This document shows, in pieces, positions 490-47,315 of a stretch of 64,000 nt of DNA. The notes beneath the pieces were generated by a model that was not told the origin of the DNA, made no database searches, and saw only the letters and a list, made by a program, of their open reading frames with translations. A program made the position numbers and the translations under genes. The DNA is from Patescibacteria group bacterium (GTDB taxonomy: Bacteria; Patescibacteriota; Minisyncoccia; Phycocordibacterales; Phycocordibacteraceae), in assembly GCA_018971265.1 (NCBI GenBank), contig JAGXBE010000001.1, positions 1,051 through 65,050 of the forward strand. The letters run 5' to 3'. The first letter of the stretch is position 1. Each line of letters starts with the position of its first letter.

Positions 490-3261
490 ATGGAATCCGC
501 GCCAAAGCTGTCAACGCCCGAGGAAGAACTTGCCTATTTGCGCGAGCAGGTCGCGCGCAAGGAACAAGAACTTCGGAAACGCGGAACATCGGACATTCAT
601 GCGGAACGTCCGCGCATTATTTCCGAGGAAGTTCGCGCGTATCACGCCGCCGCCCCGGAAATGCTCGCGAACGAATATCGTCTCAGTGATACGGCGGCGC
701 ATGATGCCGCCTCGAAGATATTCGCCGAGCTCAACTTTGGCGGCGATGAGGCCGCAATCGCTTCTCTGCAAGCCACGATGGAAGAAAGGGGAATTAAAAA
801 CGCGCTCATGGTGCTTGAGAAACTCCATAATCCGCATATCACGGACGACTTTCACCGGTATCTCGTGCGCTACGTTGCGGCCGGGCTGCCGCTTACCGGC
901 GCTAATGAGAACGGTCCGCGTTTTCAAGCTCTCCATATGACGCTCTATGAAATCGCACTTCCGGGACCAAAGAACGAAGAATCGAACGCACGCACGAAGA
1001 CGCTTAAAGAGCTCGTCTCCGCCATGGAGCAATTTTACGCGGGACTCCTTTCGGTCGAGGATGCTGCGCCCGGTGAGCCGCACTATTATGCGCTCGAGCT
1101 TGCGGTACCCGCGGACAGTCCCGAACTCCAGTTTTATGCAGCAGTGCCGAGCGGTAAGCGTTCACTTTTTGAAAAACAGCTCCTTGCGATTTTTCCGGAT
1201 GCGCACATCGTGCCGCAGCCGAACGACTACAACATATTCGTGCCGGGCGGCGTCGCGCTCGTTTCGACCGCGCGGCTTGCAGAGAATCCCGCGCTGCCCT
1301 TGAAGGACTATACCGATTTCGACTACGACCCCTTGAACGCCATCACGAACGCCTTTGCCAAAATAGAACACGTCGGCGAGGGCGCTGCGCTCCAGATAGT
1401 CATCGAGCCGCGTGCCGAGCGGCACGTGAAGCATTATCAGAAGATTCTCCGCGCCCTCCGGAAGGGCGAGAAACATACCGCGGCGTTTTCCATCCCGGAA
1501 ACGGCTCTGGGCGAATTCGCACGCGATATCGGCAAAGCGCTGTTTTCGAGCAAACCCAAAGATGAGGAAAGGGCAAAGGAAGTCGAGATTCGCCAGATAG
1601 AGACGAACAAGGCGCACGTCGAGCAGGTGGAAAAAAAGATCGCCACGCCCATCGTCGGCGCAACGATACGCCTCTCCGCTTCTTCAAAGGACGAAAGCAA
1701 GGCGCAGCAGGTGCTCGGCGAACTTGAGGCGGCGTTCAATCAGTTCGCGAATACGCAGGGAAACAGGTTGGAATTCACGCGCGCCGCGAAGCGGCGCGCG
1801 CAAAGCATTTTCGATGATTTTTCTTTCCGTCTGCCAGACTCATCGGCGCTTCCGCTCTCGCTCCGCGAGCTTACGACCATCTATCACTTCCCGCCGTCGG
1901 GCATCGAGAGTTCGCCGCACCTGAAGCAGGCGCGCTTCACGCACGCACCAGCGCCGCTTACACTTACGCAAACGGGCGCGCTCCTCGGCGCGAACAGTTA
2001 TCGGGGACAGGAGACGCGCATCTACCTCGACCCCGAAGATCGCCTGCGCCACCTCTATATCATCGGCCAGACGGGCACCGGCAAGACCGGTCTCATGAAA
2101 AGCATGATCATCCAGGATATTAAAAATGGCGAAGGATGTTGCTTCATCGACCCGCACGGCTCCGACATTCTCGACATCCTCGCTGCCGTGCCGCCCGAGC
2201 GGTACAAAGATGTCATTTATTTCGACCCCGCCGACCTCTCGCGCCCGTTCGGGCTCAACTTCCTCGAGTACGACTTTTCGCGCCCCGAGCAGAAAACATT
2301 CATCGTGAACGAGCTTCTCATGATCTTCCGCCGGCTCTATGGCGACGTTCCCGAAAGTATGGGTCCCGCATTCGAACAATATTTCCGCAACGCAACTCAG
2401 CTCGTGATGGAGGACCCGGCGAGCGGTTCGACGATTCTCGACATTGCGCGCGTGCTCTCCAACAGCGACTTCCGGCGCGCAAAGCTCAATAAGAGCATGA
2501 ACCCCATCGTGAACCAATTCTGGAATGAAATCGCGAGCAAGGCCGGCGGGGACGCGGCGCTCGAGAACATCGTGCCGTACATCACCAACAAGTTCGACGA
2601 CTTCACCGCGAACGATTTCATCCGTCCCATCGTGGGGCAGCAGGAATCCTCGTTCAAATTCCGCGAGGTAATGGATAACAAGAAAATACTTCTCGTGAAC
2701 CTCTCGAAAGGACGTCTCGGCGAAAGAAATGCGAACCTACTCGGCCTCATCATCGTCGGCAAGCTCTTTATGGCGGCGCTCGCGCGCGCGGATAACCCGC
2801 GCGCGGCGTATCCGCCATTCTATCTCTACATCGACGAGTTCCAGAACGTGACTACCGATTCGATCCCCGGCATCCTCTCCGAAGCGCGCAAATATAAGCT
2901 TGCGCTCACGGTGGCGCACCAGTTTCTCAACCAAATTGAAGAGAAGACGCGCGACGCGGTTTTCGGCAACGTCGGTAACATGGCGGTTTTCCGAGTGGGC
3001 GAGGAAGACGCCGAGTTTTTCGCGAAACAATTCGCGCCGGTCTTCGCGACGCTCGACTTCGTGAACATAGAGAACCGCAATGCGTACATAAAGATTCTTG
3101 CGAACGGCATACCCCAGAAGCCGTTTGACATGAAGACGTCGGACTTGCCGGCCTTGAACCACGAACAGGTAGACGACCTTATTCAGCTTTCCTCGCTCAC
3201 CTACGGCCGCGACCGTGCTACAGTTGAGAGTGTGATTCGCGAGCGGTACCTCTCGCATTAA
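490..3261 (+). CDS. HerA/VirB4/type-IV-coupling-protein-like P-loop ATPase (FtsK-HerA superfamily) with an unassigned N-terminal domain of about 500 aa
   Basis: Start taken at MESAPKL (490), just after a TATACT box. Walker A is IIGQTGTGKTG, followed by CFIDPHGSDILDIL (HerA/DUF87-like DPHGE motif). Walker B is LYIDEFQNV and a Q-rich VAHQFLNQIEEKTRD motif follows. The TIYHFPPSG motif precedes the ATPase. Confidence 0.65.
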   Translation: MESAPKLSTPEEELAYLREQVARKEQELRKRGTSDIHAERPRIISEEVRAYHAAAPEMLANEYRLSDTAAHDAASKIFAELNFGGDEAAIASLQATMEERGIKNALMVLEKLHNPHITDDFHRYLVRYVAAGLPLTGANENGPRFQALHMTLYEIALPGPKNEESNARTKTLKELVSAMEQFYAGLLSVEDAAPGEPHYYALELAVPADSPELQFYAAVPSGKRSLFEKQLLAIFPDAHIVPQPNDYNIFVPGGVALVSTARLAENPALPLKDYTDFDYDPLNAITNAFAKIEHVGEGAALQIVIEPRAERHVKHYQKILRALRKGEKHTAAFSIPETALGEFARDIGKALFSSKPKDEERAKEVEIRQIETNKAHVEQVEKKIATPIVGATIRLSASSKDESKAQQVLGELEAAFNQFANTQGNRLEFTRAAKRRAQSIFDDFSFRLPDSSALPLSLRELTTIYHFPPSGIESSPHLKQARFTHAPAPLTLTQTGALLGANSYRGQETRIYLDPEDRLRHLYIIGQTGTGKTGLMKSMIIQDIKNGEGCCFIDPHGSDILDILAAVPPERYKDVIYFDPADLSRPFGLNFLEYDFSRPEQKTFIVNELLMIFRRLYGDVPESMGPAFEQYFRNATQLVMEDPASGSTILDIARVLSNSDFRRAKLNKSMNPIVNQFWNEIASKAGGDAALENIVPYITNKFDDFTANDFIRPIVGQQESSFKFREVMDNKKILLVNLSKGRLGERNANLLGLIIVGKLFMAALARADNPRAAYPPFYLYIDEFQNVTTDSIPGILSEARKYKLALTVAHQFLNQIEEKTRDAVFGNVGNMAVFRVGEEDAEFFAKQFAPVFATLDFVNIENRNAYIKILANGIPQKPFDMKTSDLPALNHEQVDDLIQLSSLTYGRDRATVESVIRERYLSH

Positions 3262-3267
3262 AGCCGT

Positions 3268-5286
3268 ATGCAAGAAGGAGAACAAGGATTCCCGCAACCC
3301 AAACAACCCGATGAAAATTCGGAAAAACCGGGCGTACCCGAGGATAAGGGCGAGGCGTGGCTTAGGGAAAACATGGCGTTCCAGAAGGGAGAGTGGACCG
3401 TCACGTCCTCCGAATCCGGGCTAACAGATGCGCGCGACATCGACGATGACTTGATCGATGGAGACGAAGAAGGAAGTCCGAACTCGGGATCATGGATTTT
3501 CGCGCACCCCCTTCGACCGGCCAATGACTCGGAAAACGCAGGGAGGGTTGACAATCAGTCGCCCGGGACCGAGGGCACGCCGAAAGAGTGGCGCGAGAAG
3601 TTGAGGGGGCTTATTAAGGGCGCGAACGAACGGTTTGGATTTAGCGAGCGCGCAGAATCTCTCCAGGGTTATCTCGCAGAGCGTTCGAAAGGTTTTGATA
3701 CGAAAGCGAAAGAGTACGGACCGAAAGCGGAGAAACTTATTCGCTCTCTCGGCGAGAAATATAACAAGCTCGGCTGGAAGTCCAAGCTTGCGGTCGGTGC
3801 AAGTCTCGGCATCGGCGCAGCAGCATTTTCCGGGGTATCAACGTCGCTCGCGCTTCTTTTTGGCGCGGGGCTCGCCGCGCAACGCGTCGCCGGCATGACA
3901 GGCATGTTCCTCAAGTTTGAAAAACATTTGCAAGATACGGGAGAAGGGAAGTCGCAGGGTTTTTTCGCGCAGCAGGAGTGGTACAAAAAAATAGCGGAAA
4001 GACCGGAACAGCAGCGGAAACTCGCCGCGGCAATCATGTCACTCACCTATACCGGAGCCATGAGCGTCTCGATAGGAGAAGCAGTTCATCTCGCAAGCGG
4101 AACCGCTTGGGGCGAGGCAACGCACGAGTGGTTGAAGCAACACTGGCCGTTCGGAACTGCGGAACCGGCGCCCGCGACCGCACATAACGGGCGTGAAGTA
4201 TCCGGAATCATCCGACATCCCGAAGCCGTGCCGGCGCCGAGCGCACCCCCAATGCCGGAAATTTCAGTGCCGGCATCAACCGGGCATGGTGCCGAATACA
4301 TGCTGAAACGAGTCTGGGAAGATCTTCAGGAGAAACATCTTGATCCGAGCAACTACGCGCAAAATAGCGATATTCACCGACTCCTCACGGCCGATGCGCA
4401 TTCAATCGACACGCTTGTACACCAAATCGCCGCCGATCCGCAGCACGGCTTTTTCCATGCGGATGGCACGAGCGTCCGCATCAGTCCGGACGCGCATATG
4501 ACCATCGACGAACACGGCGAGATCCTTCTCTCTGACCCCGGCCACAAACTGACCTGGGCGCCCTCGCATTTGCCGACCACGCCGGCACACTCTCCTGAGG
4601 CGCCCGCCGCGCATTCCGAGGCGGTTCTCAAAAATATCGACTCGCCGGCGGTACCCGAAGTACCTGTTTCAGCGGGCGCATCTCTCCCTGCCGAGACCGT
4701 CGTCGCGCCACACGCACCGGCGGCAGAGCACGCGCCCGCCCCTGAAAGCATTCCGGCAGGGCACCCTGGCACCGAATCGTCCGACGGCCCGGTCCTGCAC
4801 GACAATGAAGGGAGTATCGTGCAGGACAGGGAAGGCAGTCCTGTCCACACCGAAGCATACGGGTCGCTGCCCGAAAATGCGCCGTCTGCAACGGAACATG
4901 CAATTCCGAATCCGGAAGTCCCTCCTCCCCCCGCCGTCGCAATGGAGCACACGAGTCCTTTTATAAATCACAATGCGTTGTCGGTTGACCCGACCCACGA
5001 ACACATCTTCCAGGACACGAACGGTGCTTTGCTTGCCTACGGCAACGATCACGACGCGCAATTCAGGGCGGCGCAGGAGTACGTCAAAACGCACCACGAT
5101 GCGATTATCTGGGTACAAGCGGGGAAACCGGTTTTCTATAACGGCGAATGGAAACCTTGGGTATACTCGGTTCAATATGGCGGCTGGTGGCGAGGCGTAT
5201 ATGCGCTCATCCCTACCGAGGCGCCGGATCCGTCTCAGATAGGCGGTATCAATCCGGAAACGTTTATAAAACAACTCGACAAATAA
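3268..5286 (+). CDS. hypothetical membrane-anchored protein with a long Pro/Ala-rich low-complexity linker
   Basis: Sits 7 nt after the ATPase stop on the same strand. Acidic N-terminus, hydrophobic segment LAVGASLGIGAAAFSGVSTSLALLFGAGLAA, PA-rich region and a Trp/Tyr-rich C-terminal domain. The protein-like composition contrasts with the Arg/Cys-rich antisense ORFs. Confidence 0.55.
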   Translation: MQEGEQGFPQPKQPDENSEKPGVPEDKGEAWLRENMAFQKGEWTVTSSESGLTDARDIDDDLIDGDEEGSPNSGSWIFAHPLRPANDSENAGRVDNQSPGTEGTPKEWREKLRGLIKGANERFGFSERAESLQGYLAERSKGFDTKAKEYGPKAEKLIRSLGEKYNKLGWKSKLAVGASLGIGAAAFSGVSTSLALLFGAGLAAQRVAGMTGMFLKFEKHLQDTGEGKSQGFFAQQEWYKKIAERPEQQRKLAAAIMSLTYTGAMSVSIGEAVHLASGTAWGEATHEWLKQHWPFGTAEPAPATAHNGREVSGIIRHPEAVPAPSAPPMPEISVPASTGHGAEYMLKRVWEDLQEKHLDPSNYAQNSDIHRLLTADAHSIDTLVHQIAADPQHGFFHADGTSVRISPDAHMTIDEHGEILLSDPGHKLTWAPSHLPTTPAHSPEAPAAHSEAVLKNIDSPAVPEVPVSAGASLPAETVVAPHAPAAEHAPAPESIPAGHPGTESSDGPVLHDNEGSIVQDREGSPVHTEAYGSLPENAPSATEHAIPNPEVPPPPAVAMEHTSPFINHNALSVDPTHEHIFQDTNGALLAYGNDHDAQFRAAQEYVKTHHDAIIWVQAGKPVFYNGEWKPWVYSVQYGGWWRGVYALIPTEAPDPSQIGGINPETFIKQLDK

Positions 5287-5605: not shown

Positions 5606-5621
5606 TATATACTTACGTTAT

Positions 5622-6158: not shown

Positions 6159-6267
6159 AAGCTTGCGTTTCTATCAGTAATGTGCTATAAGATTTACTGG
6201 TAAGTAACGGTCTTTTGTATGCCTTGCCCGAGGGTTTGTCGGGTGCACAAGAAAGGAAGGGGTCATT

Positions 6268-6861: not shown

Positions 6862-6944
6862 CTTCATAACGAGGTACCACTCGGAACCGTGTATCTGTTT
6901 GTTTCCAAACAAACGCTGCACGGTTCTTTTATTTTTGCTACGGT

Positions 6945-26762: not shown

Positions 26763-27719
26763 ATGGATAAACCGAAAATAACGGCGAAAGATTTCTTTTT
26801 GTGGGCGGGGGCGATGGTAGCGTTTTATTGGAGCATTATCGCTTTCACTTTCCTCATTTTCGATTACATAAATTACAGCTTCCCGAATCCACTCGCCTAC
26901 TATCCGAGCGATCCGTACCAGAGCGGTATTAGCTACGAAATGGCGTCCCTCATAGTACTCTTCCCGCTCTACCTGCTCTTGGTGCGGTTCATACGCAGAA
27001 GTATAGCTTTGGATTCTTCCCGCAAAGATATTTGGGTGCGCCGCTGGGCGCTCATATTGACGCTCTTCATTGCGGGCATAACGATAGCGGTAGACCTCAT
27101 CACCCTCCTCACCACCTTTCTTAATGGAGAAACGCTTACGACGGCGTTCCTGCTGAAAGTACTTATCATACTCCTTGTCGCGTCCGGAGTATTCATGCAT
27201 TTTATTGCCGATTTACGGGGCTACTGGGATACGTTTCCGCTTCGTCGACGTTCCGTCGGTATTGGTGCTGCCATCCTTGCCGTTGTTACCGTAGTCTCCG
27301 GATTTTTTATCGTCGGCACGCCCGCGCAAGCCCGCCTTGCGCGGTTTGACGCGCAAAAAGTGAGCGATCTCCAGAACATACAGTCGCACGTGGTGAATTA
27401 TTGGCAGGCAAAACATACGTTGCCTACAACGATTACCGATCTCAACAACTCTCTCTCGTACGGTCCTCTGCCGATGGACGCCCAAACGGGGGAGCCGTAC
27501 GGGTATCAGGCAACGGGAACACTTTCGTTCAAATTATGCGCAGTCTTTAATGTGCCGAGTCGTGGCAATCAAAATAGCTACCCTGAATCTTTTTCCGGAC
27601 CTACGATGCCCGTACCGGCGGGTGGCAGAGGAATGGTGCAAGACAATTGGCAACATGGCAGCGGGCAAGTATGTTTCGATCGAACTATCGACCCCAGTTT
27701 CTATCCGCCGGTGAAATAA
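26763..27719 (+). CDS. hypothetical polytopic membrane protein (DUF5671-like)
   Basis: Several TM helices then a soluble C-terminal domain. The family label is from memory only. Confidence 0.5.
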   Translation: MDKPKITAKDFFLWAGAMVAFYWSIIAFTFLIFDYINYSFPNPLAYYPSDPYQSGISYEMASLIVLFPLYLLLVRFIRRSIALDSSRKDIWVRRWALILTLFIAGITIAVDLITLLTTFLNGETLTTAFLLKVLIILLVASGVFMHFIADLRGYWDTFPLRRRSVGIGAAILAVVTVVSGFFIVGTPAQARLARFDAQKVSDLQNIQSHVVNYWQAKHTLPTTITDLNNSLSYGPLPMDAQTGEPYGYQATGTLSFKLCAVFNVPSRGNQNSYPESFSGPTMPVPAGGRGMVQDNWQHGSGQVCFDRTIDPSFYPPVK

Positions 27720-27760: not shown

Positions 27761-30598
27761 ATGGCGTATGATCACAAAAAAATCGAGAAAGCAGCCCAAG
27801 AGAAGTGGGCGAACCTCGATCTCTACCGAACCGACCTCTCGGACGGTGCGAAGGACCCATATTACCTCCTTGCCGAGTTCCCGTATCCGTCGGGTGATCT
27901 CCACATCGGACACTGGTATGCATTCGCCGTAACCGACATATACGCGCGTCTTTTGCGACTGCGCGGCAAGAATGTCTTTTTCCCGATAGGATTCGACGCC
28001 TTCGGCTTGCCTGCCGAGAATGCAGCGATAAAGCACGGACTCGATCCTGCCGAGTGGACCTACAAGAATATTGCTCGTATGCGTGCACAACTCGCCTCAA
28101 TGGGAGCGTCTTTTGATTGGTCAAGAGAGGTGCTTACCTGTGACCCGAATTACTACCAATGGACACAGTGGCTTTTCGTGAAGCTCTTCGAGCACAAGCT
28201 CGCCGAACATCGCGAGGCATCGGTAAAGTGGTGCCCAAAGGATCAGACCGTGCTTGCGAATGAACAGGTAGTTGACGGTCACTGTGAGCGCTGCGGGACC
28301 GAAGTGGAAGAAAAGACCCTTACCCAATGGTTTCTCAAGATAACCGACTACGCAGAGCGTTTGCTTGCCGGACTTGACGCGCTTCCGTGGCGCGAGGAAA
28401 TAAAGGAAGCCCAGCGCGCATGGATCGGCAAGAGCGAAGGCGCGTACTTGGAGTTTCTTGTTTCCGGGCGCGATGAAAAGATAAAGGTCTTTACGACACG
28501 GCCGGACACGGTGTTCGGCGCAACCTACGTCGTGCTTGCGCCGGAGCATCCTATTGTTTCATCGTTGCTGCCGTCCGTTTCGAATGTGGAAGAAGTCGAA
28601 AAGTACGTCCGTGCGACCGCGAAGAAGACCGAACGCGAGCGCAGTGAGAATAAAGAAAAGACCGGCGTGAAATTGGAGGACGTTTCCGCGATCAATCCGG
28701 CAACGAAGGAGGAGATACCGGTGTACGTCGCCGACTACGTTCTCGCCTCCTATGGCACTGGCGCGGTGATGGCCGTCCCCGCCCACGACGAGCGCGACTT
28801 CGAATTTGCAAAAAAGATGAAGCTTCCAATCAGGGAAGTAGTAATACCCGAACGCATTGATAAGCGGAATCCGCCGGTGTTTGGCAAAAAAAGTGTGGAA
28901 CGTCGGAATGTGCATGCGTTTGTCAAAAACAAAGATGGAAAAATCCTCTGCCTGAAATGGAAAAAATATCCGTGGACTACGTTCCCGATGGGGGGAATTG
29001 AAGAGGGGGAAGACGCTGTCGCTGCAGGGCGACGCGAAGTCGCGGAGGAGACAGGGTATATTCATCTTACGAATCCAAGAATGCTCGGCGGCGAGGTGCG
29101 AGCTGAATATTTTGCCGCACACAAAGATCAGAATAGAATTTCATACACGACTCTCATCGCTTTCGATTTGGAAGACGAAGCGCGTGAGCCGGTTGCCAAG
29201 GAGGAGGGTGAAGCGCATGACATATTTTGGGCGGACCCGAGCGATGTCACTTCCACGAGCATGACGCATGCTGAAATAGACGTATGGCTCGCTCGACTTT
29301 CGAACGAAAAAGGTTTTGCATACGTCGAGTCTGGCATGTTGATCAATTCCGGTGAATTTACCGGCAAGAACAGCGAAGAAGCGAAGTGGGACATCGTTGC
29401 GTATGTGGGCGGCGAGCGTGCGACGCAGTATCGGCTCCGTGACTGGCTGGTCTCCCGCCAGCGTTACTGGGGCTGTCCGATACCGATTGTCTATGATCCC
29501 TCCGGGAAGCCGCACGCGATTCCGGCCGAACACTTGCCGTGGCTTTTGCCGACCGATGTCGACTTCACGCCGACGGGCAAAGCACCGCTCGCGTCGTCAG
29601 CAGAACTTAAAGAGCGCGTGACGCGCATCTTCGGCGAGGGCTGGACGCCCGAACACGATACGCTCGACACGTTTGTCGACTCTTCGTGGTACTTCCTCCG
29701 CTATCTCGACCCGAAGGATGCGCATGATTTTTCCGATGCCGCGCTTATGAGAAAGTGGCTGCCGGTCAATCGCTATTCGGGCGGAGGCGAACACACGACG
29801 ATGCATCTCTTCTACGCGCGCTTTTTCACCAAAGCGCTCTACGACCTCGCGCTCGTACCGGTCGAGGAGCCTTTTACCGAGCGTTTCAATCGCGGTCTTG
29901 TCATGGGTCCCGACGGGCAGAAGATGAGCAAGTCAAAAGGAAACGTGCTGAATCCCGATGAATTCGTAGAGCGCTATGGCGCCGATGCCGTGCGCATCTA
30001 CCTCGCCTTCATCGGCCCTTACAACGAGCCGGGGAACTATCCGTGGAATCTCGATGGCGTCGTTTCCATGCGCAGGTTTCTTGAACGCGCCGCACGCGTC
30101 CTCGATCGTGCAGAGGAAAGGCCTGAAGAACCCGAGATTCAACAAGCAGTTCGGCGCACGAGCGTGAAAATCGCTGCCGACGGCGACCGGTTTAAATTTA
30201 ATACTTGCATTGCCGCGCTCATGACGTTGCTGAACGAGTTCGAAAAGTCGCCGACGGTCTCGAGGATGGCTGCAAGATCTTTTGTTATCATGCTCGCTCC
30301 TTTCGCGCCGCATGCAGCCGAGTTTTTTTGGGAGCAGCTTGACGAAAAAGAGAGCGTCCACCAGACATCCTGGCCGGCAATCGCCCCCTCCGCCGTAGAG
30401 GAAGTCACGGTCGTGCTACAAGTAAATGGCAAGCGCCGCGGATCCGTACGCTTGTCCCCGACCGCTTCGCAAGAGGATGCGATGAATGCCGCCCTCGCGA
30501 TTCCTGGCATCACCAAAATAGTTTCAGGAGAAAGGCCCGAACGCCTCGTGTACGTGCCGGGGAAGGTCGTTAACCTCGTAATGCGCTCGAAATCTTGA
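27761..30598 (+). CDS. leuS: leucine--tRNA ligase with an inserted NUDIX hydrolase domain
   Basis: HIGH motif (PYPSGDLHIGH), CP1 editing motifs (TRPDT, GTGAVMAVPAHDERDFEFA) and KMSKS. Between the editing domain and the GMLINSGEF segment there is an insertion of about 155 aa carrying a canonical Nudix box, GGIEEGEDAVAAGRREVAEETG. Confidence 0.9.
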   Translation: MAYDHKKIEKAAQEKWANLDLYRTDLSDGAKDPYYLLAEFPYPSGDLHIGHWYAFAVTDIYARLLRLRGKNVFFPIGFDAFGLPAENAAIKHGLDPAEWTYKNIARMRAQLASMGASFDWSREVLTCDPNYYQWTQWLFVKLFEHKLAEHREASVKWCPKDQTVLANEQVVDGHCERCGTEVEEKTLTQWFLKITDYAERLLAGLDALPWREEIKEAQRAWIGKSEGAYLEFLVSGRDEKIKVFTTRPDTVFGATYVVLAPEHPIVSSLLPSVSNVEEVEKYVRATAKKTERERSENKEKTGVKLEDVSAINPATKEEIPVYVADYVLASYGTGAVMAVPAHDERDFEFAKKMKLPIREVVIPERIDKRNPPVFGKKSVERRNVHAFVKNKDGKILCLKWKKYPWTTFPMGGIEEGEDAVAAGRREVAEETGYIHLTNPRMLGGEVRAEYFAAHKDQNRISYTTLIAFDLEDEAREPVAKEEGEAHDIFWADPSDVTSTSMTHAEIDVWLARLSNEKGFAYVESGMLINSGEFTGKNSEEAKWDIVAYVGGERATQYRLRDWLVSRQRYWGCPIPIVYDPSGKPHAIPAEHLPWLLPTDVDFTPTGKAPLASSAELKERVTRIFGEGWTPEHDTLDTFVDSSWYFLRYLDPKDAHDFSDAALMRKWLPVNRYSGGGEHTTMHLFYARFFTKALYDLALVPVEEPFTERFNRGLVMGPDGQKMSKSKGNVLNPDEFVERYGADAVRIYLAFIGPYNEPGNYPWNLDGVVSMRRFLERAARVLDRAEERPEEPEIQQAVRRTSVKIAADGDRFKFNTCIAALMTLLNEFEKSPTVSRMAARSFVIMLAPFAPHAAEFFWEQLDEKESVHQTSWPAIAPSAVEEVTVVLQVNGKRRGSVRLSPTASQEDAMNAALAIPGITKIVSGERPERLVYVPGKVVNLVMRSKS

Positions 30599-30632: not shown

Positions 30633-31715
30633 ATGACTAAGGTTCTCAAGGTCAAAAAGAGCGGAAAAAAAACATCCCAAAGGCGATCCGCTTCCTTTTC
30701 TTTTGATAGCGCCCTGCTCGTAAAGCGCCTCCTTGCTGCGGCTCCAGAACGCGCTCGCGAGGTGCTCGCGCGCCGTTTCGGCCTCGGCACAAACCAAAAG
30801 CGCGAGACTCTTGAGGCCATAGGCGCCCGTTCCGGCATTACGCGCGAACGCGTCCGCCAAATAGAGGCGGTTGGCCTCGAGGCGATTCGTCACAGCAAGC
30901 CCTTCAAGGACGCAAATGCCTCGTTTGAGGAGCTTGCACGGTATATAAAAACTCTTGGCGCTATCGTACCCGAAGATGAACTCATGCAGATGCTCGGTGG
31001 CGATGAAAAGGGCCGCAATCGGTTCCGCTTCTTACTTGTGCTCGACTCCGCTTTTTTTCGCGAACGCGAAACGGACGAGTTCCTTGCGCGCTGGCACGTA
31101 GACAGCGCTACAGCCAAGAGCATTCACAGCGCGCTCTCGAAACTTTACAGCTCTCTCAAGGATAATGACGTGGTCTCAGAGGGCGAGCTTCTCAGCCGTT
31201 TTCTCGATGAACTCAAGGACGTCAACGAGGCATATAAAAATGAAGAAGTTTTGAAGCGATGGCTTTCGCTCTCAAAGCACATCGGAAGTAATCCGCTCTC
31301 CGAGTGGGGTCGAGTGAGCGCACCCGCCATACGCGTCAAGGGCGTCAGAGACTATGCCTATTTGGCTATCAAGCGTCATGGCTCTCCGATGCATTTTTCC
31401 GCGGTTGCCAAAGCAATCGGGACGCTTTTTTCAAAGAAGGCGCACATCGCAACTACGCATAACGAGCTCATTAAAGATCCCCGGTTCGTACTGGTCGGCC
31501 GCGGACTCTATGCTCTTACCGAGTGGGGCTACACGCCGGGCGTGGTACGCGACGTGATTCGCGAAACGCTTCTCGAAAAGGGTCCGATGAAAAAGGAAGA
31601 AATCATCCAGCACGTAAAACGAGCGCGCTTCGTCAAAGACAACACCATTCTCGTCAATCTCAACGACTCGCGATACTTTAAGCGGATGAAAGACGGCCGT
31701 TATACTGCCGTCTAA
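30633..31715 (+). CDS. DNA-binding protein with a sigma-70 region-4-like HTH and a C-terminal HARE-HTH domain
   Basis: ETLEAIGARSGITRERVRQIEAVGLEAI is a region-4 HTH. The C-terminus (MHFSAVAKAIG ... KDPRFVLVGRGLYALTEWGY) matches the HARE-HTH pattern. Confidence 0.55.
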   Translation: MTKVLKVKKSGKKTSQRRSASFSFDSALLVKRLLAAAPERAREVLARRFGLGTNQKRETLEAIGARSGITRERVRQIEAVGLEAIRHSKPFKDANASFEELARYIKTLGAIVPEDELMQMLGGDEKGRNRFRFLLVLDSAFFRERETDEFLARWHVDSATAKSIHSALSKLYSSLKDNDVVSEGELLSRFLDELKDVNEAYKNEEVLKRWLSLSKHIGSNPLSEWGRVSAPAIRVKGVRDYAYLAIKRHGSPMHFSAVAKAIGTLFSKKAHIATTHNELIKDPRFVLVGRGLYALTEWGYTPGVVRDVIRETLLEKGPMKKEEIIQHVKRARFVKDNTILVNLNDSRYFKRMKDGRYTAV

Positions 31716-31831: not shown

Positions 31832-33166
31832 ATGGCGATGAAAAAACTCAAGGAGAAGTTCGGTATCCGTATTATGCCCTGGCCAGTTTTCATGCTCGGC
31901 CTCATGATTCTGTTAACTTCGTTCGTGTTCATGCCCGGCGTCGTCTCGCTCGCTCTCTCATTGGCTCTCTTTCTCGCCCCCGTGTGGCTGCCGTTTCTCC
32001 TTGTCAGTGGTGCGTGGACGCTCTGGATCATTTTCCGGCGTTCGGAATTCATCGCGGAGCAAAATTACATGCTTCTTGAAATTAAACCGCCGCGCGGTCT
32101 TGAAAAGACCCCGCTCGCAATGGAGGCATTTTTCTCCGGCATACACCTCTCCCCGGGTGAAGCCACGTGGTATAAAAAATATATTAAAGGGGCGGTACGT
32201 CCGTGGTGGTCGCTTGAAATAGCTTCTCTGGAAGGAGAGGTGCATTTCTTCATATGGACGCGCGCAGCTTTTCGCAGAATTGTCGAGGCACAGATGTATG
32301 CGCAGTACCCGGGCGTGCAGATAGTCGAGGCCCTCGACTATACGCGTCTCATCACCGCGACATCAAAAGATTGGAGTATTTGGGGTTGCGATTTCGCGCA
32401 TACGGCCGAGGATCCCATTCCCATCAAAACATACATCGAATACGGTCTTGATAAAGTGCAGAAGGAACCGGAACAAGTCGATCCGCTTGCGAACCTTGTT
32501 GAATTTATGGGCTCGATAGGGAAGGGCGAATATCTCTGGCTCCAGCTCATCATCCGCGTCCACAAGGGTGAGAAATACAATAAGTTGAATGCGAGTGGCA
32601 AGGTATATACCTGGAAGGACGAGGCGAGAGATTTGGTACAAAGGCTTCGCGCGGAGACGGTCGGGAAAGTAAAATATAAAGATATATTTACCGGCGAGAC
32701 GCGCGAAACCGACGGATTTCCGAACCCGACAAAAGGTCAGTCGGAGAAAATGGCCGCCATTGAACGCAACGTTTCGAAGCTTGGTTTTGACGTGGGCGCG
32801 CGGGGCGTGTACCTGGCGCGACCGGAAAAGTTCGATCCGATAATGATTTCCGGTTTGACGGGCATCTTCAAGCAGTTTTCTTCGGAAGGATGGAATGGAT
32901 TCAGACCGAGCGGGTGGATGACCGAGTTCGACGACTATCCTTGGGAGTTCGGCGTGAGCAAGCTGAAAGATAAATATAGGACTTGGCTTATCGACGCATA
33001 TCGCCGCCGCCAATTTTTTCACGACCCCTTCAAAAAGGATGCCATGGTGATGAGTACCGAGGAGCTCGCGACCATTTTTCATATTCCTTCACGCGCAATC
33101 GGTACACCGTCTCTCGCGCGCATTCAGTCAGCTACGAGCGAGGCGCCCGCGAATCTTCCGGTCTGA
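31832..33166 (+). CDS. membrane-anchored protein (2 N-terminal TM helices) homologous to the N-terminal domain of the 490-3261 ATPase
   Basis: Two TM helices, then a soluble region that aligns with the pre-ATPase domain of the 957-aa protein. WSLEIASLEGEVHFFIW ... YAQYPGVQI pairs with YALELAVPADSPELQFYAAV ... IFPDAHI. MSTEELATIFHIPS pairs with SLRELTTIYHFPPS. Confidence 0.55.
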   Translation: MAMKKLKEKFGIRIMPWPVFMLGLMILLTSFVFMPGVVSLALSLALFLAPVWLPFLLVSGAWTLWIIFRRSEFIAEQNYMLLEIKPPRGLEKTPLAMEAFFSGIHLSPGEATWYKKYIKGAVRPWWSLEIASLEGEVHFFIWTRAAFRRIVEAQMYAQYPGVQIVEALDYTRLITATSKDWSIWGCDFAHTAEDPIPIKTYIEYGLDKVQKEPEQVDPLANLVEFMGSIGKGEYLWLQLIIRVHKGEKYNKLNASGKVYTWKDEARDLVQRLRAETVGKVKYKDIFTGETRETDGFPNPTKGQSEKMAAIERNVSKLGFDVGARGVYLARPEKFDPIMISGLTGIFKQFSSEGWNGFRPSGWMTEFDDYPWEFGVSKLKDKYRTWLIDAYRRRQFFHDPFKKDAMVMSTEELATIFHIPSRAIGTPSLARIQSATSEAPANLPV

Positions 33167-33167
33167 T

Positions 33168-34175
33168 ATGGGTTTCCTCGAACGCCTTTCCTTGGCGACT
33201 TTCTCCGCGCTCCAGTTCCACTTCTTGCGCTTTTTCCGACAGTGGGTGGCAGTGCTCGCGTCCATTATTCTCTTTTTCGGAGCAGGGTATTTCCTCCTTG
33301 CGCCCCCGCAATTTACCGGGATAAAGACAATCGTCATTGCGCAAGGTGCATCACTCCGCACCGTTGCCGGAGAACTTGCGGATGCGCACGTCATTTCGTA
33401 CCCGCTGGTCTTACGACTCTTGCTGCAAGGAAGCGGCGAAGACAGTCACATACAAGCCGGAGCGTATCGCTTTGACGCACCTGAGAATCTCCTCCTCGTC
33501 ATGCACACAATCATTACTGCGGGGTACAGCATCCCCCCGGTTCGCATTACGTTTCCTGAGGGAGCTACCGTGCGGGATATGGCAGCACGAATTGCCGAAG
33601 CACTACCGAGTATATCCGCAACGGACTTTCTTGCGTCGGGGCAGCCATACGAGGGCTACCTTTTCCCCGACACCTATCACTTCTCCTCCTCTGCAGATGT
33701 TTCGTCGATACTAAGGGCGATGCGCGCGAATTTTACCGCGAAGACGACACCGCTCACGGGTGAGATAACCGCCTCCGGCCACTCGCTTTCCGACGCCGTC
33801 ATCATGGCGTCCTTGCTCGAGAAAGAGGCGCGCACGAGTGTGGTCAGACGCATGATCTCGGGCATTCTCTGGAATCGCCTGCAGCGCGGCATGCCGCTCC
33901 AGGTGGACGCGGTTTTCGGCTATATTTATGGCCGCGACACCTACGCGCCTTCTCTTACGGACCTGCGTGTTAACTCGCCCTACAATACCTATACCCACAA
34001 GGGCCTTCCGCCCGGCCCCATCGATAATCCCGGTCTCGACTCGCTTGAAGCAGCGATACATCCGACCCCGACGAAATATCTTTATTATCTCACTGACAAG
34101 GAGGGCGTCATGCACTATGCGACGACCTACGCCGCTCACGAAGCCAACCGTAGAAAATATTTGCAGCCATATTAG
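33168..34175 (+). CDS. mltG: endolytic murein transglycosylase (YceG family)
   Basis: N-terminal TM, then a YceG-like domain (IIGGASLRTV ... GAYRF ... YYLTDKEGVMHYATTYAAH). Confidence 0.75.
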   Translation: MGFLERLSLATFSALQFHFLRFFRQWVAVLASIILFFGAGYFLLAPPQFTGIKTIVIAQGASLRTVAGELADAHVISYPLVLRLLLQGSGEDSHIQAGAYRFDAPENLLLVMHTIITAGYSIPPVRITFPEGATVRDMAARIAEALPSISATDFLASGQPYEGYLFPDTYHFSSSADVSSILRAMRANFTAKTTPLTGEITASGHSLSDAVIMASLLEKEARTSVVRRMISGILWNRLQRGMPLQVDAVFGYIYGRDTYAPSLTDLRVNSPYNTYTHKGLPPGPIDNPGLDSLEAAIHPTPTKYLYYLTDKEGVMHYATTYAAHEANRRKYLQPY

Positions 34176-42956: not shown

Positions 42957-44003
42957 ATGAAAGTTTTTCGCTCTCTTTTCCGCGGCAAGCGAGGAGAATC
43001 GGTGGTACTGATAGATGTCGGGGCGAGCTCAATCGCCGGTGCCTATGTTCACTACGGTGAAAACGAATCGCCGGCGCTGATTTATATGCGGCGCGTTCCT
43101 ATCGAAATACGGGAGGGCGAGCCGCACGGGCGAGCTATGTTGCGAGCACTCCGGATACTCGGAGACGTTCTTGTGCAGGAAGGTGCGCCGATGCTTGCGC
43201 GCTCTACCGGCAGCGGCAGCGCCGATATCATCCTCGTCTCCGTTGACGCGCCATGGCAAGAAACCTCAGTACGTACCGAACATTTCGAACGGACGACGCC
43301 GTTCACTTTCACCAAGGCTCTCGTTAGCAAGGAGCTCGAGAAAAGCCGCGCTAACGTGCCGGAAAAAGTGCTCGCCGATGAAAGCGTCATCGGCACGATT
43401 CTCAACGGCTACGAGACAACCCGTCCCTATGGAAAAAAAGTACATCGTGCGTCCGTCGTGGTCCTTACTTCGCTTATCGACAAAAAAATAGCGGACGGCA
43501 TCATCTCAATCCTCCAAGGCATCTATCATACGAAACGCATTCTGCCCATTTCAGGCAGCTCGCTCCGCTATCAGGCGATGCGTACAGTGTTTCCGCATGA
43601 ACGGGACGCTCTCATCCTCGATGCCATGGGTTCCTTGACTTCGGTCGTGCTCGTGCGCAAAGGGCTTCTAATGTCCGTCTCAGAAATAGGGGATACCACC
43701 GAGAATGACCCCGCATGGGTGCGCAAAGTCGCGGACGGGTTTGCGGAAATCGCAAAACGCTACCCATTGCCTCGGACTATATTCTTGCTGGCTCATGAAC
43801 CAGAAATTTCTTCTCTTCGCGCAAAACTCGATGAGGCGCGCCTCGGGTCACTCTGGCTCTCAGACAACCCCCCCAAAATAGTCTCTATTTTGGCGAGCCA
43901 TGTCGCAGGATCGATCCAACACGCCAATACGACATCTCCCGACCTTCTTATTCTTCTCATGGCACGCTACTATCAAGCAAAAGGAAAGGAAGAGAAGTTC
44001 TGA
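42957..44003 (+). CDS. actin-like ATPase fold protein (FtsA/PilM-like)
   Basis: Phosphate-1-like VVLIDVGASSIAGAY and phosphate-2-like ALILDAMGSLTSVVLV. The domain order parallels FtsA. Confidence 0.4.
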   Translation: MKVFRSLFRGKRGESVVLIDVGASSIAGAYVHYGENESPALIYMRRVPIEIREGEPHGRAMLRALRILGDVLVQEGAPMLARSTGSGSADIILVSVDAPWQETSVRTEHFERTTPFTFTKALVSKELEKSRANVPEKVLADESVIGTILNGYETTRPYGKKVHRASVVVLTSLIDKKIADGIISILQGIYHTKRILPISGSSLRYQAMRTVFPHERDALILDAMGSLTSVVLVRKGLLMSVSEIGDTTENDPAWVRKVADGFAEIAKRYPLPRTIFLLAHEPEISSLRAKLDEARLGSLWLSDNPPKIVSILASHVAGSIQHANTTSPDLLILLMARYYQAKGKEEKF

Positions 44004-44113
44004 CTCCCTTTTCTTCTCTCGACCATCACGCGTAAAAAAATTGAGACGCCTGACAAAACAGCTAATGCACATCCCCTTACGAAACTTGTCCTCCGGGCTG
44101 GTATACTCTCTTT

Positions 44114-45340
44114 ATGCGCAAACTTGATGACATCGTTATACCGTCCTCGCGCCGCAGAGAGGTGGCTGCCACAGACCAGCCGCCCGTTCCCAGTCGAGAG
44201 CCGCTTCGTCTTTCAGAGAAACCGCCAAGACTTCCTTATACGACGCTTGTCGTTGTTTTGCTCATCATAGCTATTTCCGCCGGCGCATTATTCTACTTCT
44301 CCGGCGCCAAGGTTGAGATAACGCCAAATTCTGTTTCTGCGGCGGTCCAAAATTCATTTACCGCAAGTCAGAACGCCGGAAACTTACCTTTCGAGATCGT
44401 TACGGCACAAAAAATAGCGACTCAGAGTGTCGAGGGAAGCGGCACCAAAGAAATGCATTCTTTCGCCTCAGGAACCGTGACCATCTACAATACGCAAAAG
44501 AAGGCACAGCGTCTCATTACGAATACCCGTTTCGCCACCACCGCCGGGCTCATTTTCCGCATCCACTCATCGGTGGTGGTTCCAGCAGCGACAGACCCAA
44601 CAAAACCAGGGAACATAACAGTTTCCGTATACGCCGATCAAGCTGGCAGTTCCTACAATATTGGCCCTTCTTCTTTCACGATTCCAGGACTTGCTGGAAC
44701 GCCGCAAGCAACCATGGTATACGCGCGTTCATCAGGATCGATGACAGGAGGTGCGTCAGGAAATGTTCCGATTATAAACACCGCGACTGAGACGCAGACG
44801 CGCGCGGCGCTCATCACTGCTCTCACTCCGGACTTGGCTGCCAGCATAGAAGCGCAAATACCCGCCGGTTATCTGCTTCTGCCCGGGGCCGCAACTACAA
44901 CGTATCAAGAACTCACGCCGACTCCGTCAAAGACAACAGGGATGGTCGACGTAAGAGAACAGGGAACCATTACGGCCGTCGTCTTCCCGAATGCCGCCCT
45001 CGCAAAAACAATCGCTTCTTCAATTGCAGGGCTTGGGTATCAGGGCGAACCGCTTATTCTTGCCTCCACAAGCGATCTTAGAATGGTGCCGGGTTCCGGA
45101 CAAATGCCCGATTCGCGCACCACTTCATTCTCTTTCACCCTCGCGGGAACCGCTTCTCTTGTATACGATGTCGATACGGCCCGCATCGCCGCAGCGGTGA
45201 GCGGGAAAACCCGTCCAGCCGCCGAGGTAGCGCTTACGAATCTTCCGGAAGTCAAGCGCGCCGTTATCACCCTCCGGCCGTTCTGGAGACAGACGTTCCC
45301 TCAGGACCCCTCCAGCATTTCGGTCGTGGTTACGCATTGA
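44114..45340 (+). CDS. hypothetical membrane-anchored extracytoplasmic protein
   Basis: Single N-terminal TM (LVVVLLIIAISAGALFYF) then a Thr/Ser/Ala/Gly-rich beta-type domain. Confidence 0.45.
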   Translation: MRKLDDIVIPSSRRREVAATDQPPVPSREPLRLSEKPPRLPYTTLVVVLLIIAISAGALFYFSGAKVEITPNSVSAAVQNSFTASQNAGNLPFEIVTAQKIATQSVEGSGTKEMHSFASGTVTIYNTQKKAQRLITNTRFATTAGLIFRIHSSVVVPAATDPTKPGNITVSVYADQAGSSYNIGPSSFTIPGLAGTPQATMVYARSSGSMTGGASGNVPIINTATETQTRAALITALTPDLAASIEAQIPAGYLLLPGAATTTYQELTPTPSKTTGMVDVREQGTITAVVFPNAALAKTIASSIAGLGYQGEPLILASTSDLRMVPGSGQMPDSRTTSFSFTLAGTASLVYDVDTARIAAAVSGKTRPAAEVALTNLPEVKRAVITLRPFWRQTFPQDPSSISVVVTH

Positions 45341-46241: not shown

Positions 46242-46247
46242 TCACCT

Positions 46248-46682
46248 ATGGGAAAAAAACGCATTATCAAGAAAAGCGGCAAAGGCCTCGATCAAGGACG
46301 CAAGGAACGTGCGCTTTCGAAAGCAACTAAACGCCACCTCGAAAAGGGTATTCTCCATATCGAGGCGACGTTCAACAATACAAAAGCAATCCTTACTGAC
46401 GAGAAGGGTAATGCGGTCGTCAGTTCTTCTGCCGGCGCTCTCGGTTTTTCTGGTGCGAGAAAATCGACACCCTATGCGGCGGCTAAGGTCGGCGAGTTTC
46501 TTGGCGAGAAGGGTATGATGATCGGCCTCAAAGAAGCATCGGTTGTCATCCGCGGCGTGGGTGCGGGCCGCGAGTCGGTGCTGCGCGCGTTCTCGGGCAA
46601 GGGTGTCCAGATACGTTCCATAAAGGACGTAACGCCGGTGCCACACAACGGTCCGCGCCCACCCAAGCCTCGCCGCGTATAA
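46248..46682 (+). CDS. rpsK: 30S ribosomal protein S11
   Basis: GILHIEATFNNTKAILTDEKGNAV ... S11 signature. Confidence 0.9.
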   Translation: MGKKRIIKKSGKGLDQGRKERALSKATKRHLEKGILHIEATFNNTKAILTDEKGNAVVSSSAGALGFSGARKSTPYAAAKVGEFLGEKGMMIGLKEASVVIRGVGAGRESVLRAFSGKGVQIRSIKDVTPVPHNGPRPPKPRRV

Positions 46683-46703
46683 TTTCCTATCCTTTAACTT
46701 CGT

Positions 46704-47315
46704 ATGATTACTGGTCCACGATATAAAATAGCGAAACGTCTTGGCGCTTCTGTTTTTGAAAAAGCACAGACGCAAAAATTCGCTCTTTCCGCTGACCGCA
46801 GCGCAAAAAATAAACGACGCGGACGCGGACGCGCAAGCGAGTACAGCAAGCAGATGCTCGAGAAACAGAAAGTGCGTGTTACCTACGGTTTGCCGGAACG
46901 GCAATTCCGCAATTATGTCCGGAAGGCACTCGCTGCACACGGGGCAAAGCCGGTCGAACGCCTCCACGAACTTCTCGAACTTCGACTTGATAACGTCATT
47001 TGGCGACTCGGCCTTGCGCCCACGCGCCGTGCCGCGCGTCAGATGGTTGCGCACGGCCACGTGCTTGTTGGCGGGAAAAAGACCCGTATCCCTTCGCGTA
47101 CCCTCTCGGTCGGTGATCAGATTGCGGTACGCGAGGGCTCGAAAGAGCACGGAACCCTGATCGGATTCAATGAACGTTTTCTTGAACGGCCGATTGCGAG
47201 ATGGCTCTCGTGGAACCCAAAGACGATGGAGGGCAGCGTTCTTGAGCGCCCGACCGTGGCATCGGCGGATCCCGCCGGCGACCTCGGTACGGTGCTCTCG
47301 TTCTACACGAGATAA
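46704..47315 (+). CDS. rpsD: 30S ribosomal protein S4
   Basis: MITGPRYKIAKRLG ... S4 domain with the ERRLDNVIWRLG-like motif. Confidence 0.9.
   Translation: MITGPRYKIAKRLGASVFEKAQTQKFALSADRSAKNKRRGRGRASEYSKQMLEKQKVRVTYGLPERQFRNYVRKALAAHGAKPVERLHELLELRLDNVIWRLGLAPTRRAARQMVAHGHVLVGGKKTRIPSRTLSVGDQIAVREGSKEHGTLIGFNERFLERPIARWLSWNPKTMEGSVLERPTVASADPAGDLGTVLSFYTR

Follow-up and report, generated by a model that had tools for sequence, protein, structure and literature searches.

The 444-aa protein encoded at 31832..33166 (+ strand) of the window, by which we mean the whole 64,000-nt stretch of DNA analysed, is, judged from its sequence, an ATPase-less and membrane-anchored paralogue of the N-terminal domain (DUF8128) of a 923-aa ATPase encoded at 490..3261. 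The two genes lie on the same strand and 28.6 kb apart. We propose that the 444-aa protein is the membrane-docking subunit of a coupling-protein-like hexameric motor of the FtsK/HerA superfamily, a reading to which we assign a probability of roughly 0.55. The proposal draws directly on the homology of the two proteins, a predicted fold like that of the VirB4 N-terminal domain, the hydrophobic hairpin, an operon found in other lineages and the junction between its two genes. The physical interaction, the partner in the present genome, hexamer formation and the substrate are what we infer beyond these.

Comparison of the two proteins by BLASTP gave one alignment of 373 columns (residues 96-442 of the 444-aa protein and 178-492 of the ATPase) with 37.7 bits and an E value of 9e-7. 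The hhalign comparison of the two orthologue sets covered 300 columns (residues 77-443 and 148-493) with a probability of 94% and an E value of 1.3e-7. Thus the similarity, which the original prediction had read by eye over roughly 300 aa, is significant beyond the short motifs, and the motif pairings named there were reproduced in the BLASTP alignment: WSLEIASLEGEVHFFIW of the 444-aa protein pairs with ALELAVPADSPELQFY of the ATPase, YAQYPGVQIV with LAIFPDAHIV, and MSTEELATIFHIPS with LSLRELTTIYHFPPS. The identity is just 21% with many gaps, as might be expected if two unrelated proteins resembled each other by chance or composition. However, the best of 500 residue shuffles of the ATPase N-region reached 25.4 bits, against 38.9 bits for the real sequence. 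Moreover, one Pfam family, PF26449 (DUF8128), is precomputed on the 100%-identical database proteins of both (P0001 and P0121) and on nearly all listed homologues, and two independent structure models, one for each protein, share their top structural matches. A chance resemblance is therefore hardly credible, and we rejected it on the BLASTP, hhalign and shuffle scores. The stand-alone and the motor-fused copies belong to one domain family of about 350 aa, as had been predicted. The family is already catalogued in Pfam, with no assigned function, fold or partner, and a literature search found no paper on PF26449/DUF8128. Scans of the 444-aa protein with NCBIfam and with a Pfam copy predating PF26449 matched no family. 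Close homologues of both proteins all come from Patescibacteria MAGs (e.g. Kaiserbacteria, Paceibacterota and Minisyncoccota), which confirms the CPR origin assumed in the original prediction, and the 267-kb contig of a relative bears both genes on the same strand, about 37 kb apart.

A Kyte-Doolittle scan of the 444-aa protein revealed a single N-terminal hydrophobic stretch at residues 14-68 (31871..32035, +), predicted to form two TM helices. Lysine and arginine residues stand on either flank (MAMKKLKEKFGIR... and ...IFRRSE), and this pattern fits a putative hairpin of two helices whose ends both lie in the cytoplasm; the AF2 model places helices at residues 16-33, 35-47 and 49-76. The DUF8128 domain follows at residues ~77-423 (32060..33100, +), with a predicted alpha/beta fold like that of the VirB4 N-terminal domain. 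Near its end lies the most conserved stretch in the family, EELATIFHIP (residues 410-419; 33059..33088, +), in which E410, E411, A413, T414, H417 and P419 are invariant. It pairs with RELTTIYHFP at residues 459-468 of the ATPase in both BLASTP and hhalign, and the pattern EE[LI]A[TS][IL][FYW]HxP served to scan loci for this family. The C-terminal tail (residues 424-444; 33101..33163, +) has a pLDDT below 50 in the AF2 model and ends in an invariant P..NLP(V), with P439, L442 and P443 invariant across 43 diverse representatives. It aligns by hhalign with residues ~480-493 of the ATPase, and is homologous to the linker between domain and ATPase in the fused protein. The protein ends right after the domain, and a motif search for GxxxxGK[ST] found no occurrence in it.

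The stand-alone form, an N-terminal hydrophobic hairpin followed by the domain (hereafter TM-DUF8128), is a large Patescibacteria family of 2552 clusters at 50% identity. The hydrophobic N-terminal stretch is kept in nearly all representatives. Lengths range from 199 to 500 aa in the best 150 of the 2552 representative clusters, and no single polypeptide combining TM segment, domain and ATPase occurred among these 150.

The predicted fold of DUF8128 is that of the VirB4 N-terminal domain, a likeness at the fold level only, with just 6-7% identity to VirB4 (TrwK of R388). Neither this fold nor the nature of the motor described below had been recognized in the original prediction. No VirB4 sequence model of Pfam or NCBIfam covers the DUF8128 domain of either protein. 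In the 444-aa protein no VirB4 model (TIGR00929 VirB4_CagE or Pfam CagE_TrbE_VirB) matched at E<=1, and in the 923-aa protein the match of TIGR00929 was confined to the P-loop (residues 521-548; E 0.017, 13.4 bits, cut-off 643). A search of PDB chains with profiles of both families gave nothing useful. In type IV secretion the VirB4 N-terminal domain sits against the membrane, the VirB4 dimer interface consists entirely of N-terminal domains, and the two TM helices of VirB3 wrap the N-domain (PMC9259494). In the present protein, by contrast, a TM hairpin is fused to an N-domain without ATPase, an arrangement not described for VirB4. The EccE membrane subunit of ESX type VII secretion also gave a structural match, but its score is much weaker than that of VirB4, its domain is smaller, its sequence is not similar, and both its secretion system and its phylum are different ones.

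The 923-aa protein, which we call type A, consists of an N-terminal helical region, its own DUF8128 copy (residues ~148-493; 931..1968, +) and an ATPase module of the T4CP/HerA type (residues ~500-923; 1987..3258, +). Its orthologues are 916-936 aa long, start at the ATG at 490 and bear precomputed PF26449, PF01935 and PF12696. The motif search located Walker A (GQTGTGKT) at residues 526-533 and Walker B (YLYIDEF) at 778-784, both of them invariant. In the Pfam scan TraG-D_C (25.1, cut-off 22) and DUF87 (29.6, cut-off 23.2) passed, and TrwB_AAD_bind (19.4) stayed under its cut-off of 20.5; the NCBIfam matches were weak and TraD/VirD4-like, the TraD models giving 55 and 38 bits, far under the cut-offs of 366 and 648. 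The motor appears to resemble type IV coupling proteins more closely than true HerA. Owing to a shallow alignment, the full-length model is poor over its C-terminal half, with a pLDDT of about 30-60, and only weak T4CP/HerA structural matches were obtained there. No hydrophobic segment, and hence no N-terminal TM segment, was detected in residues 1-740. Canonical T4CPs (VirD4, TrwB, TraD and DotL) have their own N-terminal TM helices and no VirB4-type N-domain. Here, in contrast, ATPase and putative anchor are separate proteins, and the former has a VirB4-like N-domain in type A or a zinc ribbon at its C-terminus in type B (described below). Directly downstream of the type A gene lies a gene for a 672-aa protein (3268..5286, +) with hydrophobic segments, one of them at residues 180-198, a Pro-rich region and no Pfam match. 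A homologue with 29% identity stands downstream of type A in locus L005, and genes of 963 and 982 aa, also without Pfam match, take this place in L169 and L170. The 672-aa protein could serve type A as a membrane partner.

The original prediction had also proposed a full unit of TM segment, domain and ATPase. In 34 of 61 informative metagenome loci, TM-DUF8128 stands directly upstream of, and on the same strand as, a T4CP-like ATPase of about 600 aa that lacks DUF8128 (type B); the same order occurs in 4 of 80 genome loci. The spacing between the two genes is 0-285 nt. In loci L068, L076, L079 and L082 an ATPase of 610-617 aa begins 16 nt after the TM-DUF8128 gene, and the database gene calls give DUF8128 followed by TrwB_AAD_bind/TraG-D_C/zf_Tbcl_2, the two genes overlapping by 4 nt in L172 and lying 61 nt apart in L173. 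These adjacent gene pairs indicate that the predicted unit does exist, as a two-gene operon whose genes sometimes overlap. It was never seen as one polypeptide: TM-DUF8128 and type B matches never shared an ORF in the loci examined, and the nearest approach to a fused protein is gp156 of Bacillus phage G.

The two halves of the operon meet at a clean fusion/fission junction. The type B ATPase of L068 is 42.9% identical to the ATPase module of the 923-aa protein (E 1.5e-100), and type B begins about 30 residues before Walker A. Residue 14 of type B aligns to residue 504 of type A, and the end of TM-DUF8128 aligns to type A residue ~493, so that type B starts where the ATPase part of the fused protein starts. 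The TM-DUF8128 protein of L068 has the same ending, ...PPSNLPV, just before the ATPase gene. Type B relatives bear precomputed PF10412, PF02534 and PF12696, and the type B ATPase ends in a CxxC-x17-CxxC zinc ribbon and a Lys-rich tail.

On this basis we picture the docking as follows. The N-terminal hairpin of the 444-aa protein would tether the cytoplasmic domain to the inner membrane face, and DUF8128 together with the conserved C-terminal tail would bind the ATPase. Separate adjacent genes encode the two halves in many Patescibacteria, TM-DUF8128 and then an ATPase starting where the domain ends. In the present lineage the ATPase encoded 28.6 kb away has its own TM-less DUF8128 copy, and docking might occur domain-to-domain as in the VirB4 central/outside dimer. 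The substrate may be DNA, a guess made because the ATPase is of the T4CP type, the split form carries a zinc ribbon and a Lys-rich tail, and a gene for an HTH protein is conserved upstream.

Against the proposed docking stand the 28.6 kb between the two genes in the window and the lack of any ATPase gene within 10 kb in 76 of the 80 genome loci of TM-DUF8128. The identity of the partner in the present genome invites a different reading. The 923-aa protein comes with a DUF8128 copy and is followed by a conserved membrane-protein gene, and might therefore do without the 444-aa protein. It might then be a separate machine anchored by the 672-aa protein, with the 444-aa protein serving a type B ATPase whose gene is unlinked and lies beyond the window, and the DUF8128 copies being paralogues in parallel systems. 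Every ATPase adjoining TM-DUF8128 is of type B; unlinked arrangements do occur, since TM-DUF8128 is missing from the surroundings of 21 of the 61 type B loci; and type A always has its own downstream membrane-protein gene without Pfam match. The tail of TM-DUF8128 is invariant in the present lineage too, as if it might still bind the linker-less head of an ATPase. Such an additional ATPase would also agree with a published count of 5,713 T4CP homologues among 2,918 genomes, or roughly two for each (PMC12102498). However, the 64-kb window contains no type B gene, and none of the 76 genome loci of the YceG type has one within 10 kb. The sources of the best matches differ as well, namely Kaiserbacteria, Paceibacterota and Minisyncoccota for type A and Niyogi-, Taga-, Giovannoni-, Portnoy- and Terrybacteria for type B, which hints at complementary distributions. 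We consider this alternative a serious but clearly less probable one.

The gene neighbourhood of TM-DUF8128 is strongly conserved. Upstream of the 444-aa gene lies a gene for a protein with Sigma70_r4 and HARE-HTH domains (30633..31715, +; Pfam), which holds this place in 76 of 80 genome loci and 28 of 34 operon-type metagenome loci and is labelled as such in L001, L167, L172 and L173. Downstream lies a YceG/MltG gene (33168..34175, +; Pfam YceG, E 1.4e-71), likewise in 74 of the 80 genome loci; in the present lineage it holds the slot taken by the type B ATPase in other lineages. The other neighbours in the window are housekeeping genes as well (LeuRS, MnmA, UvrABC, TGT, ATP synthase, AlaRS and RpoA, besides YceG), and this synteny is kept across the 80 genome loci.

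Conservation of the order HTH protein, TM-DUF8128, YceG and MnmA (76/80, 74/80 and 57/80 loci for the three neighbours) could mean that the link to an ATPase has been lost here. The 444-aa protein would then act as an envelope or division scaffold together with the Sigma70_r4/HARE-HTH protein, YceG/MltG and FtsW/RodA, its VirB4-like domain being only a cytoplasmic scaffold. FtsW/RodA does lie just upstream in L068, L082 and L172, and by analogy EccE may offer a precedent as a two-TM structural membrane subunit with a similar domain. Against this, the orthologous gene in the same place after the HTH gene is coupled to an ATPase elsewhere (0-16 nt gap or 4-nt overlap), the sequence of TM-DUF8128 and its linker-like tail are equally conserved here and in the ATPase-coupled lineages, and YceG, MnmA and LeuRS are housekeeping proteins with no known functional tie. 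We therefore hold a scaffold role to be improbable. The idea of an FtsK substitute found no support either; FtsK is mentioned in passages of papers on the saccharibacterium TM7x.

Orthologues of the two proteins are 67-86% identical and stand in core housekeeping synteny, which argues against a mobile element. As to a phage origin, PHROGs returned phrog_5156, a family of unknown function. As to a defence origin, PADLOC gave only generic HerA/mads8-type matches for the ATPase and none for the 444-aa protein.

The same conservation, unlike that of mobile-element genes, bears on whether both proteins are parts of a conjugative or effector T4SS, VirB3-VirB4-like or TrsD-like plus VirD4, encoded apart from the rest. 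Patescibacteria do possess T4SS with VirB4, TrsD and VirB3 (PMC12102498), the predicted fold matches the VirB4 N-domain, and the ATPase matches TraD/VirD4-type models and TraG-D_C. But the scores of the ATPase half are those of a coupling protein (TraD/TrwB/TraG-D_C) and not of VirB4, and there are no T4SS genes nearby. Among the window ORFs scanned with Pfam, to about 48 kb and several of them without match, no VirB4, VirB6, VirB8, relaxase, pilin or other T4SS family was found. Only 148 of the 5,713 Patescibacteria T4CP homologues lie near virB4 (PMC12102498). A close parallel is TrsD, a stand-alone and remote homologue of the VirB4 N-terminus that occurs beside VirB4 in pGO1 and in Patescibacteria, being abundant in the latter (PMC12102498). 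Like TM-DUF8128, it resembles the VirB4 N-terminus and has a gene of its own immediately before that of an ATPase (trsC, trsD, trsE in pGO1). However, TrsD has 227 aa and stands mostly beside virB4 (1,664 of 2,272 homologues), whereas TM-DUF8128 pairs with a T4CP-like ATPase. We rejected TM-DUF8128 as a TrsD homologue, save for very remote homology: hhalign of the 43-sequence TM-DUF8128 profile against pGO1 TrsD, a single TrsD sequence, gave a probability of 0.2% and no match, and no match was obtained against pGO1 TrsE. Membership of both proteins in a dispersed T4SS is thus quite improbable.

A survey of 2025 counted about two coupling-protein-like ATPases per Patescibacteria genome, nearly all away from secretion systems and with no known role (PMC12102498). 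Under the membrane-docking reading, these orphan ATPases gain an anatomy: a separate membrane subunit with a predicted VirB4-N-domain-like cytoplasmic fold, whose gene is linked to that of the ATPase in many lineages, the domain being fused in the present lineage to an ATPase without an anchor. DUF8128, a Pfam family that counts thousands of members, thereby receives a predicted fold and a likely role. The reading also describes a concrete and testable complex in terms of which partner binds which and via which conserved tail. Patescibacteria genomes are tiny. More tentatively, and with odds well below even, the products of three conserved genes might together form a T4SS-independent membrane translocation motor found throughout the phylum: the DNA-binding HTH protein, TM-DUF8128, and an ATPase of the coupling-protein type that either carries a zinc ribbon or, as in the present genome, is joined to another DUF8128 copy. 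If so, the thousands of "orphan T4CP" genes reported in Patescibacteria would be accounted for by a motor that combines VirB4 and VirD4 parts, and this motor could be a core membrane DNA-handling machine for uptake, export or segregation.

These results further suggest that an older and portable membrane-docking module is present in the VirB4 N-domain, one also seen in EccE-like proteins and in Bacillus phages. Both phrog_5156 and gp156 of Bacillus phage G share the architecture of domain plus ATPase with the 923-aa protein; gp156 differs in that its hydrophobic segment lies inside DUF8128 instead of at the N-terminus, and its gene adjoins that of a VirB4-like ATPase, gp155.

The 444-aa protein TM-DUF8128, encoded by an ORF at 31832-33166 (+), shares a domain with the 923-aa fused ATPase (type A), whose gene runs from an ATG at 490 to 3261 and has orthologues of 916-936 aa. 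A single BLASTP alignment of 373 columns paired residues 96-442 of the former with 178-492 of the latter (21% identity, E 9e-7), and the motifs paired by eye in the original prediction were exactly those paired here. Comparison of the two orthologue sets as profiles gave a probability of 94% (E 1.3e-7) over 300 columns, spanning residues 77-443 and 148-493. The best of 500 shuffles of the ATPase N-region reached 25.4 bits vs 38.9 bits for the real sequence. Meanwhile, database copies of both proteins carry one precomputed Pfam family, PF26449 (DUF8128). The claim of a membrane-anchored paralogue of the pre-ATPase domain was thereby confirmed, and its interpretation was essentially right. The bare paralogy is not new, because Pfam already lists this domain as a DUF. 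Residues 14-68 of the 444-aa protein form a hydrophobic stretch with K/R on either flank, conserved across the family and most simply read as a predicted two-helix hairpin with a cytoplasmic domain. No transmembrane segment was found N-terminal of residue 747 in the 923-aa protein.

Literature searching returned no paper mentioning DUF8128, and no solved structure was detectable by sequence for its families. An AlphaFold model of the 444-aa protein (pLDDT 78.4, pTM 0.76) was searched with Foldseek, and nine TrwK/VirB4 chains ranked top (E 1e-4 to 9e-4), which is an independent placement. As P-loop ATPases (TrwB, HerA, FtsK) were absent from the structural matches of this ATPase-less model, the likeness must concern the VirB4 N-terminal domain and not its ATPase domain. 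VirB4 sequence models gave no match to the DUF8128 domain. On the evidence of the models, DUF8128 is thus a VirB4-N-terminal-domain-like module, with the likeness at the fold level only; this assignment was in no paper that we found. The DUF8128 region was modelled in both proteins, and different predicted folds were not seen. The 923-aa model was good over that region only (pLDDT 80-94, residues ~170-470), its C-terminal half being poor because the alignment is shallow.

The ATPase part (residues ~500-923) contains a Walker A motif, GQTGTGKT, at 526 and a Walker B motif, YLYIDEF, at 778. It passed the Pfam thresholds for DUF87/HerA-central and TraG-D_C, and its TraD/VirD4-like NCBIfam matches were below threshold. 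Together these features argue that the 923-aa protein joins a VirB4-type N-domain to what appears to be a coupling-protein-type (T4CP) ATPase. A 2025 survey reported 5,713 VirD4-like T4CP homologues across 2,918 Patescibacteria genomes, of which 148 lay near virB4, and proposed exaptation (PMC12102498). The 923-aa protein is a member of that unexplained population.

The stand-alone form is widespread. A TM-DUF8128 profile search of 1.84 billion representatives gave 2552 clusters at E<=1e-3 (818 at E<=1e-30); the best 150 of the 2552 were all 199-500 aa, and full-length members span hairpin and domain. Scanning of GTDB species genomes gave 80 loci, nearly all labelled as Patescibacteria lineages, with a single Thermodesulfobacteriota label (contig L050). 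Synteny around TM-DUF8128 is strong: a Sigma70_r4/HARE-HTH gene lies upstream (76/80), and YceG (74/80) and MnmA (57/80) lie downstream, the same order as in the window.

In four of the 80 loci, three of them Niyogibacteria, a 610-617-aa ATPase takes the place of YceG. Its gene starts 16 nt past the TM-DUF8128 stop, and the protein shares 42% identity with the window ATPase over the latter's C-terminal half. This type B ATPase starts ~30 residues ahead of Walker A and has no DUF8128; PF26449 was absent from all 120 type B matches listed. At its C-terminal end, a zinc ribbon of the form CxxC-x17-CxxC (PF23477, zf_Tbcl_2) leads into a long tail rich in Lys and Pro, a combination that suggests nucleic-acid binding. 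Such genes lie at 11028-12860 and 5390-7243 in two genome loci (L068, L082), at 6001-7812 in a Giovannonibacteria contig (L172) and at 6001-7770 in L173. The ribbon and tail are missing from the window's fused ATPase. Type B is a very large Patescibacteria family, with at least 8000 candidates scored, all significant.

A metagenome scan with the type B profile yielded 80 loci, and the 61 with >1400 nt upstream were used for counts. TM-DUF8128 lay immediately upstream on the same strand in 34 of them (gap 0-285 nt) and further upstream in 6, and was not found in 21. Database gene calls confirmed the order Sigma70_r4/HARE-HTH, DUF8128, TrwB_AAD_bind/TraG-D_C/zf_Tbcl_2, with the latter two genes overlapping by 4 nt in the Giovannonibacteria contig and 61 nt apart in another genome. 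Hence, the predicted full unit of TM, domain and ATPase exists as an operon (34/61), but never as one ORF with both matches (0/61). The last residues of TM-DUF8128 align at ~493 of the 923-aa protein; type B residue 14 aligns with 504, which puts the start of type B near residue 491. Type A therefore corresponds to DUF8128 joined to type B, with a break point that is clean in these alignments. Neither this junction nor the widespread operon was in any paper found.

We read the TM-DUF8128/ATPase system as machinery of the VirB4/VirD4 type in split or rearranged form. In the T4SS of R388, the N-domain of VirB4 abuts the inner membrane and is wrapped by the two VirB3 TM helices, and the central/outside dimer interface is built wholly from N-domains (PMC9259494). 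Both pGO1 and the T4SS loci of Patescibacteria have a gene for TrsD, a small stand-alone relative of the VirB4 N-terminus, just ahead of the one for VirB4 (PMC12102498). By analogy, TM-DUF8128 is most likely the membrane-docking subunit of a T4CP-like motor. In split lineages it would supply the N-domain in trans to the ATPase, its invariant P..NLP tail being the counterpart of the linker into the ATPase. In the lineage of this genome the ATPase has its own TM-less DUF8128, and docking would be domain to domain. The analysis shows the homology, the predicted fold, the hydrophobic hairpin, the operon and the junction; from these we infer the interaction, a hexamer and a substrate of the motor. 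DNA is our guess for the last, given that the ATPase is of T4CP type, that type B carries a zinc ribbon and a basic tail, and that an HTH gene is a conserved neighbour.

TM-DUF8128 and type A are separated by 28.6 kb in the window and by ~37 kb on the 267-kb contig of a relative. Type A is followed by a conserved membrane-protein gene of its own, which has no Pfam match (672 aa here, 699-982 aa in relatives), and type B genes unlinked to TM-DUF8128 occur in other lineages. The motor served by the 444-aa protein may therefore be a type B ATPase whose gene lies beyond the window. The fused ATPase, for its part, may have its membrane partner in the 672-aa protein (3268-5286, +), whose gene starts 7 nt past the ATPase stop. 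This protein has an acidic N-terminus, hydrophobic segments at ~residues 175-275 and a Pro/Ala-rich region. Its counterpart in L005, at the same position, is a fast-evolving homologue of 699 aa that shares 29% identity with it; in L169 and L170 this position is taken by genes without Pfam match (963 and 982 aa).

The 360-aa protein encoded directly upstream of TM-DUF8128 (30633-31715, +) carries a Sigma70 region 4 HTH at its N-terminus and a HARE-HTH at its C-terminus. Its gene precedes TM-DUF8128 in 28 of the 34 operon-type metagenome loci and was not found in the 21 type B loci without TM-DUF8128. The protein seems to belong to the module as its third conserved component, and its role is possibly that of a DNA-binding adaptor; this neighbourhood, too, was in no paper found.

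Phage relatives were also detected. PHROG family phrog_5156 (unknown function) was matched by type A over residues 206-918 (E 1e-66) as well as by type B (E 3e-60). In Bacillus phage G, gp156 (825 aa) carries DUF8128 N-terminal to a T4CP-like ATPase, and hhalign against the family profile gave 97.4% probability (E 1.5e-11, residues 42-319); the variable insert of its DUF8128 contains a hydrophobic segment (182-207). The adjoining gp155, with a Walker A motif, is annotated "type IV secretory pathway protein; VirB-like"; the two genes lie at 691-2340 (gp155) and 2356-4833 (gp156) of the phage locus (L171, JN638751.1). SPP1 and SPO1-like phages are among the ~48 Bacillus/Geobacillus phage records with related ATPase genes, which form phrog_5156.

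The window covers part of a Patescibacteria (CPR) chromosome and is rich in housekeeping genes (LeuRS, YceG/MltG, MnmA, UvrABC, TGT, F-type ATP synthase, AlaRS, RpoA), and identical database proteins originate in "Patescibacteria group bacterium" MAGs. Conserved-looking ORFs with no assigned function lie at 26763-27719 (+), 42957-45340 (+) and 46242-47150 (-), one of 318 aa with a DUF5671 match and three of 348, 408 and 301 aa without Pfam match. The leucyl-tRNA synthetase (27761-30598, +) contains a NUDIX hydrolase domain (PF00293, residues 381-499, E 2.4e-14) as an insert after the editing domain, an architecture shared by relatives L001-L004 and L167.
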